DNA of 64,000 nt from Eledone cirrhosa. Taxonomy: Eukaryota. Positions 10,295 through 54,987 of this stretch are shown piece by piece (positions within the stretch are counted from its first letter, which is position 1; every line of letters starts with the position of its first letter). The stretch is taken from positions 194,804,001 to 194,868,000 of the forward strand of contig OZ024743.1 in NCBI GenBank assembly GCA_964016885.1, in the 5' to 3' direction. The notes under the pieces were generated by a model. The model was not told where the DNA came from and ran no database searches. It worked only from the letters and a program-made list of their open reading frames with translations. Made by a program: the position numbers and the translations under genes.

Positions 10295-10536
10295 AAATAT
10301 ATATATATATACATTTATATATTTCTATGATTTTTTGTTCACGATCGCCTGTATTATTACCTTTATGATTTTTTGTCTTTAATTTTCCGGTGTTTACTCC
10401 CCCCTCCCTACGTTTTTCTGTTCCTTTTTCCCTTCCCCGTCTCTGCCTATCCTTCGCACTCACCCCTTCGTTCACTCCACCCCGCTTCACACCCCCGCCC
10501 TCTCATCCCTCCCCCTGCTTTCACCCAACGCCCATC

Positions 10537-13330
10537 ATGGCCCACCTGAGATCCTTTCTCCACCAACTCCACAATCGCCTCAAACTTTTCCTCACCCCCT
10601 CCTTCCACCCTGCTATCTCCCCTCCGCCCTTCAACACTCCTACCTTCTCTTCGCCAAAACCCGGCACTCCAGCCACATCCATTTCCTCAGCCACTGCCTC
10701 CGCCTCCACCTTATCCCCCTTGGCTTCCGTCTACACTTCCACCCCTCCCCCGCTGCTTCCCCCTCCGCGCAACGTATCCTCACCCGATCCTCACGCCTTC
10801 TGATGCGCAACTCCATCCGCGCCTCCCATTCCACCCTCCGCCTACTTGACCACCAACTGACCCCCACCCTCCTCCGCCTTTACTCCACCTGCCACCCCCT
10901 CCTCGCCCAAGCCATCCTCTCCTTCATCCACAACCTCAACCACAACCTCTTCTCGTTCCTCAGCTCCACCAAAGCCCGCAAGCTACACTCACTCCCCTCC
11001 CCCATCCACCACCACCCGCCCATCCCCATACGCCCACCACTCTCCACCTCTCCTCCGACCCAAACTTCCACCCAATCTCCACCCCTCACCACACCCTCCC
11101 TTCCCTCCCCAAACACCCAAACCCCACCCCTTGTTGTCACCATACCCCCTGACCCCCCCCCTCTCCGCACCTGAGCGCTCACTCCTTAGTAGAGGCCTTC
11201 GCTTCATACCCCACACTTCGCTCAGCGACGATTTCCGCACCCGAACGGAAGTCGAGCGATTCGTGCGACGCACTAAGCTACAGGCACATTTCAGCCGAAC
11301 GCCACCGTCTTCGGACGCCCCAGACCCGTTTCTCGCCCTGGGACGACGACCATCTTCTTGTACGCCGGCCCCAGGGCAATTTAGCACCCTGGACGCCTTT
11401 GTCGATGCCAGCCGTAGCGCAGTAAATCGTTTCGACTTCCGCCACCGTTCCAAACGGCACAACATCTCACGGGGCGAACTCCTCGCTCTCCGCTCCCTCC
11501 GTAGCCGAGATGACATCGTCATCAAACCGGCGGACAAGGGAGGCGCCGTGGTGGTATGGCGCGCGGACCTCTACACGGCCGAAACCCTCAGGCAGCTCTG
11601 TAACCCCCTCTTTTACCGCCCTCTACCCTCCGATCCCACCCCTCTCTACCAACAACAAGTCTCCTCCACCATCAAAGACCTTATCGCCTCCTCCCTCCTC
11701 CCCCCCACCGCTTCCCACCTCATCGTCCGCACACCCCGCACCCCGACCATCTACTTCCTCCCCAAACTCCACAAACCCGACAACCCCGGCCGCCCCATCG
11801 TCTCCGCTTGCAGCTGCCCCACCGAACTCATCTCCGCCTTTCTCGACTCCCTCCTCGCCCCCCTTGTCACCACCCTCCCCTCCCACATCTCTGACACCAA
11901 CCACGCCCTGCGCATTTTCGACTCCTTCACCTACCTACCCGGCCCTCAGCCATTCCTCTTCACCCTAGACATCAAGTCCCTCTATACCGTCATCCCCCAC
12001 GCCGACGGCCTTCGCGCCCTCAAACACTACCTCGACCTTCGCCCCTCCCCCATTCCCTCCACCCCCACCCTCCTTCGCCTCGCCGAGCTGGTCGTCACCC
12101 TAAATTGTTTCTCCTTCTCGGGTGTGTTTTACCAACAGGTCACGGGGGTAGCCATGGGCACAAGAATGGGCCCGAACTATGCCAACCTTTTTTTTGGCCA
12201 TGTTGAGGCCCAAATCTTTGCCCAGTACACCGGCGCCACGCCCGAATTGTACGGTCGTTACATTGACGACTGTATCGGAGCCACGACCCTCACCCGAGTA
12301 CAGCTCGACTCCTTTCTCTCCTCTTCTGCTCCTTCCACCCCTCCCTCCACTTCACCACCTCTATCTCCACCACCCACGTCCACTTCTTGGACATCTCCGT
12401 CGCCTTCGACCCCTCCCACCACTCCCTCGTCACCTCCGCCTTCTTCAAACCCACCGACTCCCACTCTTACCTCGACTTCACCTCTTCCCACCCCACCCAC
12501 ACTAAACTCTCCATTCCCTACTCCCAACTTCTCAGGAACCGCCGCCTCTGTAGCCGAGATGCTGACTTCGAGTCCCAGGCCCTTTCCCTAGTCAGCCATT
12601 TCATCCGCAGAGGTTACCCCCCCTCTCTCGTCCACACCGCTCTCACCCGCGCCCGTGCTATCCCCCGCTCCACCACCCTCACCCCACGCCACCGCACACC
12701 CACCCACCGTCTCCCCTTCCCCATCACCTACCACCCCTCCACCTTACCCCTCCACCGCACCATCCGCCGCTTCTTCCGACGCCTCCAGTCCGACCCCTCC
12801 ACCTCCCACATCTTCCCCACCCCACCACTCCCCTCCTTCAAACGCGCACGCAATCTCCGCACCCTCCTCGTCCACAGCTCCCTACCCCCCAATCCACGCT
12901 CCGTTTCCCCCCCGGTTCCTTCCCCTGTTCTAGGCCCCGCTGCAACACCTGTCCCCACATCACCAACACCACCACCTTCCAGGGTCCCAACGGCCACCCT
13001 CTCTCGGTCCGGCATGCCTTCCGCTGCACCTCCTCCAACCTAGTCTACGGACTTCGTTGCACGGAGTGCAGCGCGACTTATGTCGGACAGACGGGACGTC
13101 GCCTGGCGGACCGAGTCACGGAGCACCTCCGGGACATTCGTCTCGGGGGCAGTTCCCCCATCGCCCGCCACTTTGGTGGCCCTGGACACTCCGCACGCCA
13201 ACTCACAGTCTGTGGCCTACTCCAGTGCCACGGAACACCCGCCCATCGCCTTACGGTCGAACAACGTACTATCTTCATCTTACAGACCCACACTCCCCCC
13301 GGCCTGAACTCCCCACCCTTATTCCTTTAG
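10537..13330 (+). pseudogene. PLE polyprotein (RT + GIY-YIG endonuclease), ~4 frameshifts
   Basis: HFLSHC..LIPLG N-terminus; IKPADKGGAVVV, YFLPKLHK, GRPIVS, LDIKSLYT, QVTGVAMGT, RYIDD; KPTD..YLDFTSSHP; CSRPRCNTC linker; NLVYGLRC..C..TYVGQTGRRL..R..EH; PPGLN; TAG at 13328-13330. Confidence 0.92.
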
Positions 13331-14515
13331 CGTTCGACCGCCCCCCTCCCACCACACTTATCCCCCACTAACACCACTAACACACCCCTCCTTTTCACCG
13401 CCCACCCCACACTAACAATACTAACACCTCCACTCCACCCCTCATCTGACCACCCTTCCCCAACTAACATACTAACATCCCTTCCCTCCCCTCTTCTCCC
13501 CCTCCCCCCTCCTTATCACATGCACACACGCACCCACTTACACCACCCACCCGACACGCAACTAACATCACTAACACCCTCCAACCCCACGCACACGTAC
13601 CCACACACCCTCGTACACCACCAACTCTACACACCCTACCCCCACTAACCCTCACTCACACCTGCATTCCACCTCTCCCCACCTCCCGTATACTAACACC
13701 CACTAATACCTCTTCACCAAACTACACACACACCAGTACACCACACTCCCTCCATAGAACCTCACACACCCTTCTCTCCCCGCTCCACACTCACTCATCC
13801 CACTAACACCCCTACTAATACACACACACACACACACACACACATACACACACACCCTCCTCACTCCAACTCTCACACCTACCCATCCTCGCCTCCCTAC
13901 CATTCCGCCGACTGCTGCTATGCCCTTCCGACCACTGTCTCAGCACCAACTGACCACAGCACTTCCACTGCCGACCACTTCCTGTTGCGCGCGCACCCCA
14001 CATCTCTCCTCTTCCGACCACCGCTTCTTGGATTACCCACACGCGTTATTGACTTCCAACTAAAATCTCCATACATCCGTGTAACTTACCACTTTTCAAC
14101 CATCCTCTTACACCATCACCTATATAACTCACCCACACACACACCCCAAAAAAATTTTTTATCCACACGCCACCCACACCCACATCACGCTTAAACCACA
14201 CACACGTGCTTCCCACCACATATTTACACCCTCAGCCCCCTGATTCCTCTCCCCCCACCCCCTTATCCACACACGCACAGACCCTCCGACCCACAAAAAC
14301 ACCCCCCACATACACCTTCCTGAACATGCAACCCCGTTCTTCCCCCAACCCTTACTTTCACATACACACACACACACACGCACACCTAACCACACACACC
14401 ACCTTCAGCCCTCCCCGCTCGGACACCCCGTCTCCCTCTCCCCACTCCACCCGCCACCACCTCTACTCACCCCGCACCCTTCCACCACCTGTTTACCCCC
14501 CTTTTAATTTCAGTT

Positions 14516-14620
14516 TATTTTGATCATGCCTTTATTTTTAAATTTTCTCATTCCTTGTATTTTGATCATGCCTTTATTTTAAATTTTCTCATTCCTTGTA
14601 TTTTGATCATGCTTTATTTT
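14516..14620 (+). repeat. ~40-bp tandem repeat (about 2.5 copies) in PLE 3' UTR
   Basis: TTTTGATCATGCCTTTATTTTAAATTTTCTCATTCCTTGTA repeated. Confidence 0.85.
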
Positions 14621-14728
14621 TATTTATTATTTATTATATTTTTGTCTTTATTTGTTAATTTTTCATTCGCACCGTTTCCTTTCGCTATATGTCTCTCCAC
14701 CACTCCCCTACACACCTTTTGAACTCTC

Positions 14729-14760
14729 ACCTGAAGAAGGGCTTATGCCCGAAACGTCGT
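14729..14760 (+). ncRNA. Minimal type I hammerhead ribozyme of the Neptune PLE
   Basis: AC-CTGAAGA-A-GGGC-TTAT-GCCC-GAAAC-GTC-GT, the minimal PLE-type hammerhead architecture. Confidence 0.85.
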
Positions 14761-14868
14761 CCCCCACCTACCCCCCACTCTCCTGAGCGTGAATTTAATA
14801 AACATTTATCGTACTGCCTCTCTGTTCTGTCCCTGTTCAATTTTTCATTATACATGTATTTATATATA

Positions 14869-24754: not shown

Positions 24755-25690
24755 CAGGGTGCTGACGATATCTAGGAAAATAGAACACAGCAGTTTTATT
24801 TTTAAAGATATATTTATCAAACTTCGGTCAGTTTGTCTTCATGATTTGTTCTTTCGATCTCACTCGATAAACCCGCCATTGTCTTTGATGACGGCATCAA
24901 GGCGGCCTCGGAACGGGCTACAGGCTTTCGTCACTGTCCCCCGATTTAGGCCCCTAAAGGCACTTGTGATCCTGACCTTCAGATCGTCTTTCGTATTGCA
25001 GCTAGATCTGTTGGTGTCTCGCTCCACTGCGCCCCACACAAAGAAGTCGAGGGGGTTGCACTCAGGCGAGCTGGGAGGCCAGATGTCAGGTGAAGGGTGG
25101 TCGACAAAGTTCTTTGACAGCCAGGTTGGATCTTTCGGCTGGTATGGCAGGGCGCTGAGTCCTGCTGCCACACGTATAGCCAACCTGCAGCTACCTGGTC
25201 GATCCAGGGCTTTACTACCTCGCTCAGAACGCGGATGTAGCCATCGGTGTTTAGCTTGAGTCCCTCAGAGAAGAAGTGAGGTGGCATGACGTCACCTTGA
25301 CTGCTAACGACACCTAAGACCAACTTTGTCTGCATGACTCTGGGTACGTATTTGGATGAGGCAGCGAGCCACCTGTTGTTCTGGGAGTTGATCTTCTGGT
25401 CTTGGCAGAAGATTTTCTCGTCAGACAAAAACCACAGCATGTCTCGCTCCGGTGGGTGTTTCAACTTGTTGATCAGCTTCTTTGAGTGCTTCAGTCGCTT
25501 TTCTTGCATCGCCTTTGACAGAAATTGTCCTTTCCTCATCTTGTATGAAACGTAGCGAATGTCTTCATGTACCACCAGCCTAATGAGCTTTTCATCCACG
25601 CCTTTCTCCCTTGCAATGGCACGCATCGACTTGCCTGGTTCATTGTTGATGATATCCTGAACTTCAGCGACGAACTCGGGCGTTACTAAT
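24755..25690 (-). mobile_element. Tc1/mariner DD37D (maT) transposon, 5'-truncated, frameshifted transposase
   Basis: FLSDEKIF, VWQQDSAPCHT, WPPSSPECNPLDF; 37 residues between the 2nd and 3rd Asp after restoring a 1-nt deletion; stop at 24860; end TA|CAGGGTG at 24753-24761. Confidence 0.88.
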
Positions 25691-26087
25691 ATAGGTACAA
25701 GGCCATCCACTGTGGGGAAGAATTAAATTGTTGAGCCTTAAATGGTACTTGAATTTACCGACACCAGAAGGATTAAATATAAATTACCTAAAATCATTTT
25801 AACCAACTCGAACTATTCTGCAAACACAACGCTCAAATGTTTTCGTAGTATCATACTTCTCTATTTTAGCTTGATAGATTATGAAAAAATAAACCAAGAT
25901 TGTCGAAGAAAATATTGTGCGGTATATACTTATGCTCCTTATGATATGAGTTCAAATCCCCCCTAGGTCAGTTAGATTAGCATTTTCCGAGGCCAATAAA
26001 ATAATGTATCAGGTAAATAATGGTGTCAAAATAATTAATTGTTCACTCACCATCTAAAATCTAGCTTTGTAGCTGTATATCATAGTA

Positions 26088-41899: not shown

Positions 41900-43105
41900 G
41901 AGAATAATAATAATAATATATTAATAATAATTATGTCCGTTTACAATTGTTTCGCTACTCAATATAATATTTTTGGATCAAATGATTATAGATCATTATT
42001 GATCTGGGTCAGTTGAAAATAATTAACTTAGGTATAGTTAGAGCGGCTCATCGGAACTTCAAAAGGAATATAAATTAAAATAAGGAAAGAAAGTTACATG
42101 AATGTAATATTCCATATATTGGTATTTTACTATGGTGTCCTGGGTATATCCATTGTCTGCCATAGTCGAGCAGTATTCTTCTGTCGATGCTGCATTGTGT
42201 GAGATCTGCCTATGGGTAACAAGATGGCGGCCAATGGATATTACCTTACTAATTAGAGGGTGGTTTCAGGGGAAGTAACTCCTCGAGAAATTCGAAATTG
42301 TGGGTAGTTTATAGTTAAGAAGTGCTAATTTTTTAATTTTTTAATTGAGAGACAATGTAAGAGAGGTAACTTATAATTATCTAAGTTAGCTATAACTATT
42401 TAACTTATTAGCTATAAGTAAAAATGGGGCTAGATGACTATGTTGGGTCAAATATTCTGTTGGCGAAGGAATTAGCCCTTCAATGTTGACAGCTAATAGT
42501 AACCTCCGTTCTATCGTTAATCGGTATAGGTCGTGATAGAGTTATGTAATATGCTTCGGTAAGACAGAGGTCACAAGAGTTTATTCGTCCATTGAACGGT
42601 TGGGCCGTAGCCAATATATCCCATGTTAGTGAGTGTTCAATGTTGGTTAGTTTAATGTTTTTAATGAGCCTAGAGATGTCGAACATCTGTTGTTAGGGTC
42701 TCAGAAGGAAAAAGAGTGCTCGTTATAGCGTACCTTAAAAGGGTTAGAGGTAGAGCCGATATAGGAGCTGGTATGTGAAGCAGTTTTAACTGTGCACCTA
42801 TAAACTATATTGGGTATCAGGTAATGTCCATTTAGTGGGCATGCATTAGGGTAACGGCAGTTGCATTTACTTCTGCGGTTAGTGAGAGTAGGGTTGTTTA
42901 AACTAAGCGGTTGGTCTGTGCTAGAAGGATTAGATAAGGGAGGTGTTCTACTAGAGTAAGTATTGGTGTAGTGGCGTGGTGTATTTAATGGGTGTGGTGT
43001 TACCGCGGTGTGGTAGTTATACTGTCTTAGTTTATGATGGTTACTGAATGCGATGTGGCTAGCTAGGTTAGGTGTTGTGGAGAATGAGATTTTAATGTTG
43101 TCATA
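41900..43105 (-). mobile_element. Penelope-like element, Naiad-type, 3' fragment (GIY-YIG + 3' UTR + hammerhead)
   Basis: IKISFSTTPNL, KCNCRYPNACPLNG, NIVYRCTV, YIGSTSNPFKVRYNEHSFSF, LTWDIL, CDLCLTEAYYI, INDRTE..CQH. Confidence 0.85.
41939..42057 (-). ncRNA. Type I hammerhead with extended stem II and a core mutation (CCGATGA)
   Basis: GTT-CCGATGA-GCCGCTC...GAGTAGC-GAAAC-AATTG-TA-AAC on the minus strand. Confidence 0.65.
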
Positions 43106-45697
43106 CAATCAGCCTTGTATGCTGGAAGAGGTTTGACGTCTTTGAGATTTTATCAATGTTGCAAAGACCATTTTCCTTCACTACTATCGGTATTTTGAAC
43201 CTAGAATGCGCTGTTCTCACACCAGGCATCAGTGTTGCGGCAATGCCAGATGACGCAATAGCAATAGCCACGTCACCGTTTCCCCTGACTTTTGAACGAA
43301 TTAAGTTTATCCGGAATGTCTTTCCTGTTCCACCTGGAGCGTCAATGAAAATCAATGCAGATGTGTTCGTCTCTAAACTGTTACAAACGAAGTCGTGCAC
43401 GTGTTGTTCACTATTCAATAGAGGCTCCGTCTCTTCTACAAATCGTCGCTGCTCTTCTCTGCTGTATTGCAATTCATGCAATAACTCCAAATTGCCACTA
43501 TCCTGATTAACAACAATATTATTTGGCCTTAGCAAGTTAAAGTCACTAAGACTTTTGCCCAGGTCGTTAAGTTTGTCTTCAACATACAGAAGACATGATC
43601 ATAATGTCTCTCGCTAATCAAAAGGTTAGAGTTTCTGGTAGCCCTTTTTTTCTCTTTGAAGGTAATCCTCAGACAGTGAATGCTTAAATCGAACCCATAA
43701 AGCATTGGAATTGTCAATTTCCGTATTTGTGAGGAGCACGATGAATAGATCTCTGATGGCTTTGGGAAGCCTTTTTCGCTCAGCATCTTCCAGAGTCTGC
43801 TGCCAATGATCATCCGATTGAAGCAAACCTTTCTCTCTGCAGACGTCTTTGAATAATGGCAGGAGTTCTCCATCACACATTTTCAAAGAGTTGAAGGATA
43901 CTGGCCCTTTGACGTGATGCAGAAGGAGTTTTAAATAATACAGGTCACCATTTCGTGGAGAAACAGTGTATACTCCTCCCAAAATGTTCGCCTCAAAAAT
44001 TCCTGGATACTGCTCTACTGTTTTCCCCACGTTTCTCCTTTCCCATCTCTTATTACTCCAAGTGTAAAACTTTGGGACATCGGCATAATACAATGTTTTT
44101 GCAAACGGATCCCGATCGCAAAGATTCATGAACTTAGTCAGAGTCGTCTTAGCCATGTTATTGTTTACTTTAACAGCAGCATTGACCCGAAAGAAGATTT
44201 GATTTTCCTCAGGTAGATGAAATTGAACGCGAACTACGGCCGGTTCTCTCTCATCAATTGAAAATCCAAGGCAACAGCTTCTGAAGGACCGATATATCTT
44301 CCTGTTAAAAACTGTATTATCTCATCTTCCCTGTTCACTCCAAACATTGCCTGATCACTGCCCTTCATGTTACATTTGATAACGTATTTGATCGATTTCA
44401 CGGAAGAGCACATCTCCACGTTTAGGTGGCAGTTGAACAGTTTTAATAGTTTCATATTGTAGGGAACCACCCATTCCGAAGTTATATTTCGGCTTCCCCT
44501 TCCTTCTTGGTGCCCCTGAAATCCTCCCATTCCTGGAGACCGTCTGCTGTACACATGATAAGAGTCCTCTCCACACAATATATATTTATTGAAAGGCTTA
44601 GGGTACCGCTTACTGCACGTTCCATCTTTCCAACACGGCGAATTGTTAGAGCAATTCGGACCGTGGATCATGTGCTTCAGCACCAATTCGTGACCCTCTG
44701 GATCTTTGTTTGGATCTGGTATTTCGGCTTGAACAAATTTATCATATTCCTGCGGTTTGGACTTGGGGGCTTCATTGAGTCATAGTAAACAGTGCACATG
44801 AGGAAGACCTCCCTTTTGATATTCGACTGTCAGCATGTAAGCTATGCACTTGCCAAATAGGCCATCTACTCCAGTAAGATACTTTCTTAACAGTTTCCGC
44901 TTCAGGTCAAATACTCTGGCAATTAAATCTGGCCTGTCATGTGGCTTCTGATTCAGGAATAGGTTTTGCCGGATTTCAGGCCAGTTTGGATTGCATGTCA
45001 TTGTGATGAAGAACGAAGGATTGCCGTACTTCCGTATGTACTTCATGGCATCCTGGCATCGCTCCATCAAAAATCTCGGTCCACCGACAAATGTGGAAGA
45101 GAGTATGATTCGCCTGCCAATATTGTGAAAATCGTCATCATCATTCAATGCGTCAGTAAGGCCCTTGTATGTTGTAGATCGCAATGATGTTTGATTCATT
45201 CGGATGTATTGCAGTCTATCTTCTTCAATCTTCGCAGCCATGTCAACTAAATATTGCTGAAATAAACTACCGCCTCTGAGAATTTGGTTGAATTCATTTT
45301 CATTGTTCATTGTTTGATAGGCATAGTAGCGCATTAGCGTCAACTTCTTGTTGTTGCTCATTAACAGCTCATGATGCCATCCGTCATCGCCAAAAGGAAA
45401 ACATAGAACATACTGCAAACTGTCATAGGACCGATGGGACTCTGAGATTATTTGCAATTGTCAGCCTTTTTCTTTCAACACAATGTGCCGTGCTTTTGCT
45501 TGAAGTTCGGTACTGTTTTGTATAATAAGAGAAACTTCGTTTGCAGTTTGTGCATTGAATCTTCTCTCATGTTCCATTGCTGGTCACCTATCAGGATCAA
45601 TAATAATCGAAGCTTCGGGAATATTTTTAATTTGTTCTTTGCCATTCGAAATGAAGCAACGTAAGGGTTATATTGTCTGAGTATTATTTCCAATAAT

Positions 45698-45871: not shown

Positions 45872-46380
45872 ATTATTTCCAATAATTCAACTATGTCACG
45901 CTGAATGCCATCGTTATGGAGTATCCTGATCCTCAAATCAACACTATCCTGAGGATCCAAGAAGTAAATTTGAAGAAAATGGGTTGTTCGTTGGCATTAG
46001 GGGTTAAGGAACCGAAGTAATGGTGAATTTGAGCATGAATAATGATAGAAAGATTCCATCCACGCCTTGAGGAACGAACTTCTTCGGCCCCAAAAGATGT
46101 CATTTGGAACAGGAAGTTGTATTGTCTGAGGTTCTTCCTGAACTCGTTTGCCCGAGGCTGATCAGTACTAAATATACTGTGAAGTTCCTGGGGTAAAGGC
46201 TGCAGATTCCCCAACCTGACTTTTTCATTCATACAGCAAAAGTTAGCAGTTTCACCATGAAAAAGCATTGCATGACAACAGACACAGATCTTATTCATCT
46301 GTCTAACTTCAGCAGAGAGGTCACGTCGTTGAACTGTCCTTGCTCTATCCCTAATTGTTTGTTGGCAAAGACGTTCAGTT

Positions 46381-46860
46381 CTCCGAGCGTGCGATTCATG
46401 ATCTCTCCTTCTTTTGCCACTTTCCCTCTGTTCTGCCTGACGCTCAGCTCTCCGACCATCAGATTCATGATCTCTCCTGTTTCTGTTTCTTTCCCTCTGT
46501 TCCGCCTGACGCTCAGCTCTCCGACGATCCGATTCATGATCTCTCCTTCTTCTGTCTTTTTGCCTCTGTTCCGCCTGATGCTCAGCTCTCCGACCATCCG
46601 ATTCATGATCTCTCCTTCTCTGTCTCTTTCCTTCTGTTCCGCCAGACGCTCAGCTCTCCGACCATCCGATTCATGATCTCTCCTGTTTCTGTTTCTTTCC
46701 CTCTGTTCCGCATGATGCTCAGCTCTCCGACCATCCGATTCATGATCTCTCCTTCTCTGTCTCTTTCCCTCTGTTCTGCCTGACGCTCAGCTCTCCGACC
46801 ATCCGATTCATGATCTCTTCTGCTTCTATCTCTTTCCCTCTGTTCCGCCAGACGCGCATC
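46381..46860 (-). repeat. 69-bp (23-aa) tandem repeat, ~7 copies, Helitron N-terminal charged repeat
   Basis: CTCCGA anchors at 46381, 46450, 46519, 46588, 46656, 46725, 46793; encodes RLAEQRERDRSRRDHESDGRRAE-like units; two 68-bp units shift the frame. Confidence 0.9.
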
Positions 46861-51670: not shown

Positions 51671-54600
51671 TCAGAGCGGGCCCGTCATTCGGAGCAGACT
51701 CGCCAATTTCACCGACCTTTCAACACACTTACTAGAAGACAGCACTTGCCTCTCCATCCTGATTTTCCTCTTCAAGTGAAACTTGAAAAAGTTAATCAGG
51801 GATTGGCCGGAGAGGAAAGTGTCCGTCTTCGATCCTTTCAACCTTGTCCACCACACAATCTCTTTTGCCATGGCTACCAGGCAGATGGAAACTGCCTGCC
51901 CTTCCTCCTTTTTAAAGAAGGATGGTGGGGCTATCTGCACAATGGACTCAGTCGATAACCGGATCCGTCCTACACGGGACAGCAGCTGTTCAACATAGCT
52001 CCAGAAGTCAGCAATTCTCGGGCACTGAACGTTGGCGTGCAGGGCGGTTTCGTCGCCCTGCGCGCATCTCGGTAGGATCGGATGACAGCACCTCCGTGTC
52101 TGTAGAGCTTATCCGGAACCGGCAACGCTCCTCGGTAGCACTGCCAGGCCAGGGATTTCTGGAAGATGTCCATAGGCCCCGGGCTGAAAGTTCTCTTGAA
52201 GAGAGCGAACAGCTGATCTTCTTCGACGCCCAGGGTCTCCCCGAGAACGTCGTCGCTCTTTCCCCCCACTAGCCCTCTATAGAACGCCGAGGTGGTTGTT
52301 CCACTGATACTAGTGCCCAACTGATGGAGGGCGGTTAGCGCTTGGAGACATTCCAGCTTCCCTCAGTCTTTTCCTGATCCAGGACTGCATCTCTGTCAAG
52401 GAGACGAGGTGGGGAAAAGCGCTTATGGCAAACGGCGACCACACCTGTTCACCTTCAAGGAAGCACCAGAGATGTCGCAGCCTCAGCGCATGTTTGCTCA
52501 TTATCAGCCACGGCATGCCTAGTCTTCCACGCAACGGGTGTTCGACATAAAATGGATCGTCTGACCATGGGAGCACGTCCCTTCCGCAAAAAGCGGAAGA
52601 GAAGGCGCTCAATTTTGGTCAGAGTTGGGCGGGGGCAAGATACGACGGTCAGGCGGTAGTAGATGACGGAGGCGATGTACGCATTCGCCACCTCCGCCCG
52701 AAACTTAAGAGACAGCCTCCTCTCAGCCCATTTCTGAGTGAGAGGGGCCACCCTGCTCGTCACTTCGCTCCAGTCTTTCTCCATATGGAGGCCGGACCGA
52801 ACTAGACGCCAAGCAATTTAACAGGTCCTTTCGTCCAGTGCCCCACGACGCTGTCGGACGACATGGACTTGCCTTCCAGGTGCCGAGTTGCAAGCCCACC
52901 GACTTTTCCTGGTTTATTGTTGCTCCTGTCACCGCTTCGTATTCCTTGAGCGCAGTGTCGAGCATCTGGACGTGTTTGGTGCTCGACACCACCACGGTGA
53001 CGTTGTCGGCGTAAGCTGACACGGATTTCCCACATCCCAGTTTGCGTGGGACCCCCCCTCATCGTCTACAATTTGTGCAGTAACGGCTCGAGGGCCAGTA
53101 CATACAGGAGGGACGAGAGGGAACAACCCTGGCGGACCGAGCGTATGGTGCTGAAAGGCTGCGACATGTGACCATTCACCCTCACAATCGGGCAGATGTC
53201 GCTGTGTATCCCAGCGATCCAGCTACAAAAAACGGGCCTTAAGCCGGCCGCCTCAAGGACCGCAGCCAGGTACTAATGGTCGACCCTATCAAATGCTTTA
53301 GATTGATCCAAGTTAATCAGGGCCCCACACGTGCCAGGTTCCTTAACCACCCTCTCTATGATGTATCGCATGAGATGGAGTTTATCGTGGATGGATCTGT
53401 CCGGAATGACGCATGTATACGCCTCTCCCACCAGATCACCGACGACAAGCACCAATCTCTTTGCTAACACATTGGCCAAAATCTTGCACTCTGTGTTTAG
53501 CAGTTATGGCCCTGAAGTTGTCTATAACGTCCCCCTTGTTCGGAACTTTTCTCAGCAGTGCCACCGCTCCCCGGCTCACAAAACTGTGAATGCTCCCGTT
53601 CTGCTACCATTTACAGTAGACATCTGTGAAGAGGTCACCGAAGAAGTCTGGCATATACGCATAAAGTATGTAAGGAAGACCATCGAAACCTGGCGATTTA
53701 CTCCTCATGCAGTCAGACATCGCTTCCCGTATTTCACCTGCTGTTATCGGCTTTCCGCAGCACTGCGCTGTGGTAGTCGAGAGCCGCGGCAGTCCGTTGA
53801 GGTATGCACCGAAGTCCATACTCCGATCCGGCCCGCCACCGCTCCTGAACAATTGAGAAATGTGCTGTTGAAAAGCCGCACACATCTGTTCGGGTTCGAG
53901 CAACATGCGCCCGTTTTGATCAGCGAAAGGACCGAATTGTGGACCTGTTGCCACGTCGCGTCTCCACCACCCGGGCCCATCGAACGGCTCTCGTCCCCTC
54001 GCATCGGTTGCGTTGCTTGTCCTAAACGCCTCTTCTAGCTTTCTAACTAACTCTCCCTCTACTCTATTTTCGTCTATCACTACTCATTTTCTAAACCTTA
54101 TCGATTCTACTCTAATAGCCCTTTTCAGGGTAAACCACCACCCGTTGTTGACGATCGCACCCGTCAACGCACACTTAACTAAATCGCTAATCCGGTCTCT
54201 GTAAGCTTTGCGCACCGGGAACGACACGCTCAGCTTGCAGTAACCAGGCCCTTGCCTATGGAGTCTATCTAAGTCAACTTCACAGATCACAAATTTGTGG
54301 TCCGTGTAGTCGACTACTTTAAATTGTGGACAACCTACACTAGCCTTATCTGTTTCCCTACAGAATACCCTATCTAAATACGATCTGGATGACCCGATGC
54401 GGTTTGACCATGTCCACATTGGCATAATCGGATAATCCAGTCTATACCTGTCAGAGGGTTCAAAACGTATGAGCAGGTTGTTGAGGCTTTTACACCCTCC
54501 TGCGCTGTCTACTAGCTCCACATAATCCCAGCGCGCATCTAAGATACCGTTCCAGTCGCCCACTAACACTAAAGTGCAGGACGTTCCAAGAAAGGTCTCT

Positions 54601-54927
54601 AGACGTCTGAAGAAATATGGCCGTCCTGCCCCTGCTGGTCACGTCCAGCACCACCGACTTACCTTCTGGGTCCAGGAAGATGGCCCGTATGGCTAGAGCC
54701 TCTCTGGAAAAGCACAGCAACCCCTCCCTCGATCCTGGACGGTTGGGAGATGCGTATACATCGTAGCCGCCGATGATCAGTGCGAAGGCTCGTACTTCGG
54801 AAATTCTGGTCTCGCTGATGGCCACCACGTCTATGGTTAGTGACCTGAGATAGTTAAGCCGGTGGCCCTGCTTCCAAGATGACCCCAGGCCACGTACATT
54901 TATACTGCCTATTCTAAGTAAGGCCAT
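51671..54927 (-). pseudogene. LINE ORF2 (APE endonuclease + reverse transcriptase)
   Basis: MALLRIGSINVRGL, ISETR, LVGDWNGIL, SYLDRVF, YTDHK, KSPGFDGLP, LDQSKAFDRVDH, VRQGC, AYADNVTV, INQEKS; many frameshifts. Confidence 0.92.
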
Positions 54928-54987
54928 GTTTGGTGAGGAATGGAGTAAGTGAGAAAGGATCACTTACCTTGATCGTGTGGGAAAGGG

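Follow-up and report, generated by a model that had tools for sequence, protein, structure and literature searches.

Response elements for proteins of the QKI/How/GLD-1/ASD-2 group have been described in intron 10 of RAI14 and in the 3′ UTRs of MBP, hipk and lola. They are built on an ACUAA core with a pyrimidine favoured at position 6, they lie in a single-stranded context and, in RAI14, the tandem sites stand 9 nt apart; the motif array analysed here resembles them in all these respects, its single-stranded context being a predicted one. Such elements comprise one to four sites in the transcripts of host genes, whereas the array consists of 13 to 18 predicted sites in the RNA of a mobile element. 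That element, in turn, most resembles the Neptune-type Penelope-like retrotransposons (PLEs), with which it shares a reverse transcriptase (RT), a CX2-5CxxC linker, a GIY-YIG endonuclease at the C terminus, a pLTR hammerhead, tandem pLTRs and (TA)n targets, but its family is unlike other Neptune PLEs in combining a 3′ UTR of 1.3-1.5 kb with the motif array.

Likenesses extend to less closely related systems. The stability element of Rous sarcoma virus is described as a cluster of host-protein sites after a stop codon (that of gag), associated with a long 3′ UTR, yet it is bound by PTBP1 through CU-rich sites (PMC4764554) and provides an analogy only. Dengue virus 4, likewise a parasitic RNA, is reported to have its 3′ UTR recognized by QKI, but there is one site, and it restricts the virus through lower translation (PMC5959249); the retention of many sites by a PLE would imply a benefit to the element, unlike in dengue virus 4. 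Finally, the targets of VANC in Arabidopsis VANDAL transposons are described as arrays of short motifs in non-coding transposon DNA, built by tandem duplication and recognized by an element-encoded, DNA-binding protein (PMC5735166), whereas the best match for the array is a host RNA-binding protein.

The ACUAA motif and the PLE class are thus each known, and their combination, together with evidence of selection, appears undescribed. The literature searched, with subscription papers largely outside it, yielded no description of STAR-protein sites in the UTRs of PLEs or other retrotransposons, named no host factor for a PLE 3′ UTR and contained no report of STAR proteins blocking nonsense-mediated decay.

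The retrotransposon and its motif array

The window, by which we mean the whole stretch of 64,000 nt analysed here, contains on its plus strand a Neptune-type PLE (10322..14855) with a 5′-truncated leader, inserted in (TA)n. The ORF of this copy (10537..13330, plus strand), whose start ATG was inferred from copies L156 and L157, is frameshifted and distributed over several frames, and comprises an RT with its YIDD motif at 12259-12270, a thumb and a linker; Pfam searches on the broken copy returned RVT_1 (E 0.0037) and GIY-YIG (E 0.018), both below cut-off. Its 3′ portion (12911..13330, plus strand) encodes a CX4CXXC zinc-knuckle linker, CSRPRCNTC, which conforms to the CX2-5CxxC pattern, and a GIY-YIG endonuclease with an internal CxxC that ends at the TAG stop codon (13328-13330). 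A CX2-5CxxC linker upstream of GIY-YIG is common to Neptune and Nematis (PMC8557442), and the Neptune label used here denotes this shared domain layout, our trees having been built without named reference elements. As expected of a Neptune PLE, copies L032-L034 carry a single open frame, of 822-828 aa, ending in the endonuclease, and 398 protein homologues were found at E ≤ 1e-20.

The 3′ UTR of the window element spans 1,400 nt (about 1.3-1.5 kb across the family) up to a minimal type-I hammerhead motif (14731..14758, plus strand; CUGAAGA, stem II, GAAACGUC), with AATAAA at 14797. The hammerhead assignment is a motif match, with no Rfam hammerhead match at this position; Rfam returned four weak matches, all below gathering score and none of them in the array. 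Hammerheads of this minimal type have been described for PLEs and are reported to be weak in vitro (PMC4209133). Across the host genome, an animal genome of 3.0 Gb, the minimal hammerhead pattern has 12,384 exact matches against one for the control, many of them corresponding to short 5′-truncated PLE tails in (TA)n. Past the hammerhead, most families of the genome display a CTAAY or TTAAY word about 30-40 nt downstream, followed first by a word resembling TGTAC and then by a tract rich in T (14790-14850 in the window; L188-L207). AATAAA is less constant, and the arrangement was not seen in the foreign loci.

A tandem upstream pLTR with hammerhead, the arrangement known from PLEs, is present in 17 of 30 loci picked by their 5′ end; it extends into the array in seven of the 17 and begins downstream of the array in the other ten. 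A block composed of CACTTCCTG and a GC-rich segment (13976..13995, plus strand) is found in subfamilies A, M, B2, C and D, defined below. Reading either CACTTCCTG or CATTTCCGG with a GC-rich tail, this block is conserved from A to D where the adjacent UTR diverges (copies L243, L263 and L197), and it looks like a pLTR promoter site of the ETS type. One family copy (L152:5400-6400) has its 3′ UTR split by an RT-coding element resembling a different PLE clade. Elsewhere in the window, inspection by eye identified, all on the minus strand, broken Helitron-like Rep/helicase frames (43101-45460 and 45933-46855), a Tc1/mariner-like transposase fragment (24979-25722) and endonuclease-RT LINE fragments (53604-54963); a 69-nt coding tandem repeat of about seven copies lies upstream of the Helitron-like frames.

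A first-pass annotation of the window, made from its letters alone, had reported 13 ACTAAY hexamers directly after the PLE stop codon, forming pairs with starts 8-12 nt apart in an almost G-free, probably unstructured tract. Every hexamer was recovered at its reported start, and the array, which begins 37 nt past the TAG, resolves into six pairs and one single site, all on the plus strand. Pair 1 (13367..13381, starts 13367 and 13376) has a start spacing of 9 nt and is shared by subfamilies A, B and C, its second site being ACTAAA in C. Pair 2 (13411..13425, starts 13411 and 13420), also spaced by 9 nt, is found in A and B and is missing in C, and pair 3 (13463..13476, starts 13463 and 13471) has a spacing of 8 nt in the window and of 9 nt in B and C. 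Pair 4 (13561..13575, starts 13561 and 13570; 9 nt) is followed by the single site (13644..13649). In most B copies this site reads ACTGAC and the adjoining ACTCAC has become ACTAAC, so that the loss is offset by a gain just downstream and one site is kept at this position. Pair 5 (13692..13707, starts 13692 and 13702) and pair 6 (13802..13819, starts 13802 and 13814) have spacings of 10 and 12 nt, respectively, and the latter gives way to a (CA)n run that reaches 13855. Eleven of the hexamers are ACTAAC and two are ACTAAT. A T at position 13707 occurs in the window copy alone: of 30 aligned copies, the remaining 29 have ACTAAC at that site.

Enrichment against shuffled sequence, which the first-pass annotation had proposed as a check, is pronounced. 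Dinucleotide shuffles of 13331-13860 contain on average 0.97 ACTAAY (maximum 4) and trinucleotide shuffles 2.6 (maximum 8), and none of 1000 shuffles of either kind reaches 13; a 4-mer shuffle (mean 10.7, maximum 12 of 200) is uninformative because it preserves most of the word. The runner-up 500-nt stretch in the window contains five ACTAA. The tract has a G content of 3.5% and no predicted fold (-4.9 kcal/mol over 500 nt, z -0.34), in agreement with its earlier description. Its G-poverty is not peculiar to the array, since G is scarce in the element as a whole (11.5% G, 45.7% C). This skew of the sense strand holds throughout 10322-14855, ORF included, and three other transposons in the window have a G content of 23-29%; RNA so poor in G can hardly fold, and may escape double-stranded-RNA editing or dicing.

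Distribution of the array and conservation of its cores

The 27-nt pattern of pair 1 matches 1,192 places in the genome and its reversed control none, indicating that the array is family-wide, with at least 1,192 copies, and all 30 top copies carry 9-13 motifs each. Searches from divergent copies, together with a tree, arrange the family in successive subfamilies, namely D, C, B2, B, M and A, of which A is the youngest; endonuclease identity to the window copy is roughly 85-88% for most B copies and falls to 70-84% in C and 54-72% in D. Units have been both duplicated and deleted among subfamilies. The UTRs of subfamily D match those of A in short stretches only, and an alignment-free count yields 69 ACTAA in 13 D copies against a shuffle mean of 15.4 (maximum 24), with the pairs standing in contexts other than those of A. 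The full array is not essential, given that a short-UTR variant of D, represented by five copies, has only one to three sites in each. Seven duplicate loci and loci without an anchor were dropped before counting.

Conservation of the motifs in other Neptune families, a further expectation of the first-pass annotation, was not borne out. The sister family E (50-57% identity, UTR of 456-675 nt) has four ACTAA in six copies against 4.9 in shuffles, which is the chance level. From a metagenome set of 80 loci, 13 without an endonuclease end and one without downstream DNA were set aside, and the remaining 66 foreign loci with DNA past the endonuclease contain 0-3 ACTAAY and no array; seven relatives on genome contigs, counted out of ten because three have no endonuclease end, contain 0-1 ACTAAY. 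Foreign relatives with a detected hammerhead have UTRs of mostly about 55-440 nt and no array, and scans of viral contigs found no relatives. In the supplement of Craig et al. (584,131 characters, mainly Naiad, Chlamys and Hydra elements), where a match may be concealed by a line break, none of three exact pair strings occurred and ACTAAC gave 84 matches, none of the first 24 being an array. Animal Neptune-type elements were also encountered in contigs filed as bacterial genomes (L269-L278; CBDDTI01, JAAXHI01, CBDHDM01), which suggests host contamination of those assemblies.

The genomic background bears on how such pairs may originate. A triple-ACTAAC pattern has 28,153 matches in the genome against 2,253 for its reversed control (12-fold), many of them in satellites, and the abundance of ACTAAC satellites makes slippage a likely origin of the pairs. 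Unrelated ACTAAC-rich minisatellites are located, for instance, at C1:1197780-1201903, 1533326-1563440, 5564984-5566169 and 21677711-21678412.

Selection on the motifs was assessed on the premise that dead copies evolve neutrally and that differences between subfamily-majority letters reflect active lineages. Across 48 young copies (L040 excluded), the motifs have accumulated 17 private mutations where the base rates of the spacers predict 18.7, and they are therefore not mutational cold spots. Between the majority letters of A and B, only 2 of 78 motif columns differ, compared to 56 of 360 spacer columns (p 8e-4). In DNA of low complexity, motifs in common serve the aligner as anchors, which inflates contrasts of this kind. 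The same two subfamilies differ at 13/278 first and second codon positions, at 25/139 third positions and at 138/736 positions of the downstream UTR. A second alignment gives 1/65 for cores and 61/379 for spacers (p 7e-4), and counting the motifs of either group gives 4/75 and 58/367 (p 0.017).

Over the longer distance from C to A, none of the 50 core sites defined in C has changed (spacers, 112/380), and the sixth base differs in four of ten motifs. ACTAA is retained in ten of ten instances, compared to 9 of 64 for other A/T-rich complex 5-mers, overlapping words in these counts not being independent. Motifs defined in B, on the other hand, are no better kept in C than spacers (11/73 and 76/427; p 0.74), nor is the retention of words significantly higher (10/15 and 34/71; p 0.12), because C lacks pair 2 along with two single sites. 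A fixed-versus-private test is modest (p 0.039, with two alignments mixed), and other islands, such as CCAGTA, are conserved too. Copies L147-L151, retrieved through the motif pattern, were excluded from the B group in all tests, and the alignment of 30 young copies is too close to tell motif from spacer.

The first-pass annotation had held that a decayed minisatellite should have spacers as conserved as its motifs; the cores are found to change far more slowly than the spacers between subfamilies, one direction of comparison, from B to C, not being significant. Together, these data point to selection on the ACUAA core of the motif, with a free sixth base, and the array, which is lineage-specific, is probably functional.

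Candidate binding protein and competing explanations

A QKI/How gene is present in the host genome, as recognized from its predicted Qua1 and KH exons. The Qua1 exon scores 58.8 bits, above the PF16544 cut-off, with Quaking-A as its best PDB match, and a KH exon of QKI/How type follows 42 kb further downstream, both exons lying on one strand of C9 at about 33.26-33.30 Mb. The Quaking consensus is given by Carmel et al. as NA(A>C)U(A>>C)A, and GLD-1 is reported to bind a single hexamer at 84-110 nM, two hexamers separated by 2-4 nt at 12-23 nM and two hexamers separated by 6-12 nt at 4.8 nM (PMC2905418); since binding is tightest at 6-12 nt, the usual 3-nt gap of the array would be helpful yet suboptimal for GLD-1. 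In RAI14, tandem ACUAAC sites precede the splice site by 34 and 43 nt and QKI binding requires both, ACUGAC relieves repression and the loss of one site cuts reporter RNA (PMC13004596); the commonest spacing in the array, 9 nt, is that of these tandem sites. Fly HOW is described as binding ACUAAC at ~5-6 nM, and CUGAC ~8-fold more weakly than CUAAC, in germ-cell 3′ UTRs, with outcomes that may be stabilising or destabilising and with a double motif bound no tighter than a single one (PMC12868882).

The array agrees with known QKI/How sites in having an ACUAA(Y) core at 13 of 13 sites, a second site nearby in the six pairs and a predicted single-stranded context. Its free sixth base and the rarity of A-to-G changes at position 4 favour QKI/How over a branch point or SF1. 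Sam68 and T-STAR, reported to require linkers of >15 nt and a shorter motif (PMC4735526), fit the array less well than QKI/How. The first-pass annotation had suggested that the element RNA may recruit a host STAR protein for localisation, stability, translational control or circularisation. Recruitment as such is favoured by the slow-changing cores, the recurring pairs and the host QKI/How gene, and disfavoured by the state of other Neptune families; circularisation is not supported by the sequence. QKI-driven circularisation is described as requiring sites on both flanks (PMC11722881), and here they all lie on one side, ~910 nt from the ribozyme, with 13 ACTAA in the array, 0 in the leader part present in the window and 0 in the tail from the hammerhead start.

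The same observations can be set against explanations that do not involve a STAR protein. The pairs might be a neutral legacy, that is, remains of ACT/ACC/AAC-type micro- or minisatellites multiplied by slippage that seem conserved because they form complex islands among C runs. They can indeed be read as triplets, mostly 9 nt apart, and the turnover of units between subfamilies, the many genomic satellites matching triple ACTAAC, the sister family without an array and the non-significant B-versus-C test are all in keeping with such an origin. We nevertheless regard neutrality as unlikely: in dead copies the motifs acquire mutations at the rate that was expected, yet between active lineages they hardly change, other complex A/T-rich words have mostly been lost, drift is seen at position 6 and not at positions 1-5, the pairs of D stand in different contexts, and Tandem Repeats Finder reports isolated two-copy hits only. 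No more probable is a function at the DNA level, in which a host transcription factor or an element protein would bind the array so that it enhances transcription or counteracts silencing from a position upstream of the tandem pLTR promoter. The frequency of tandem upstream pLTRs, seven of which reach the array, and the conserved block 160 nt downstream of it that we label ETS-like would suit this role, but most upstream pLTRs begin downstream of the array and all 13 motifs occupy the sense strand. We know of no animal transcription-factor consensus consisting of ACTAA with a free sixth base, which also counts against it. The VANC targets, as tandem repeats in transposons (PMC5735166), offer a precedent for DNA-level sites, whereas for PAc, a Poseidon PLE, the RNA element that binds protein is reported to lie within the opening 172 nt of the ORF (PMC11167929).

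Still less probable, in our estimation, is that the motifs act as branch sites, or as SF1/U2 decoys, governing splicing or nuclear retention. The branch consensus reads UACUAAC, competition between SF1 and QKI for ACUAA has been reported (PMC13004596), PLEs are known to retain introns (PMC8557442), and the two sites of pair 5 precede an AG at 13735, within the conserved CCAGTA, by 43 and 33 nt. This AG, however, is preceded by CA repeats only, with no polypyrimidine tract, and its distance to pair 5 is longer in B; there are two AG in the 490 nt of the array, and pair 5 alone has one in the 18-45 nt range. Moreover, a single branch point would suffice, and ACUGAC is reported to work as a branch point (PMC13004596), yet position 4 has changed from A to G at one site only. 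A service as back-up stops, whereby TAA in all frames would trap frameshifted or read-through ribosomes in a stop-poor, C-rich RNA, accounts for the facts that all 13 TAA of the tract lie inside motifs and cover the three frames, and that the element can be read in alternative frames for >250 codons without a stop. A few stops near the end of the ORF would be enough for this purpose, however, and the AC flanking each TAA is conserved along with it, making this the most improbable of the explanations by far. Pairing with telomeres as in EN-minus PLEs was rejected, the CCCTAA-type unit being the telomeric repeat and the array containing 0 CCCTAA and 0 CCTAAC. A hidden T/N-rich ORF was likewise discarded, with between-pair gaps (35, 43, 90, 74, 48 and 100 nt) that do not keep to one frame, and a microRNA seed site is unlikely given that positions 6 and 7 vary, especially in D.

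Proposed mechanism and its significance

We consider it probable that the array constitutes a putative landing pad for QKI/How, the cores of which were kept while the spacers drifted, and which would stabilise the element RNA and time its translation. QKI/How dimers would bind the ACUAA pairs as they do at the 9-nt site of RAI14. Purifying selection would operate at the RNA stage, since only transposing master copies hand sequence on. The pairs themselves probably arose, and still turn over, through slippage and short duplications, with selection retaining the core. Within the landing-pad model, we put forward more tentatively that a protein coat beside the stop codon could shield the 1.4-kb UTR from long-UTR decay and hold or release translation in germ cells, stabilisation and translational timing being modelled on the PTBP1 element of Rous sarcoma virus. 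Hammerhead cleavage, if it occurs, would fall at about 14758, remove the poly(A) signal and leave the RNA more reliant on bound proteins. As an alternative outcome, QKI may repress translation of the element, as reported for dengue virus 4 RNA (PMC5959249).

For research on how PLE RNA is handled, the array supplies a named candidate host factor together with exact, mutable sites, and subfamilies with 1 to 18 sites form a natural series. It is conceivable, although we hold it to be doubtful, that a dense high-affinity QKI/How array causes the element RNA to be treated as a privileged germ-line mRNA in spite of its long and possibly tail-less 3′ end, and that its copies seed the genome with QKI modules that alter splicing or titrate the protein. 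If the landing-pad model is true, a transposon co-opts a developmental RNA regulator by means of a motif array, and more than 1,000 dispersed copies with clustered QKI sites could affect host splicing when sense-oriented in introns.
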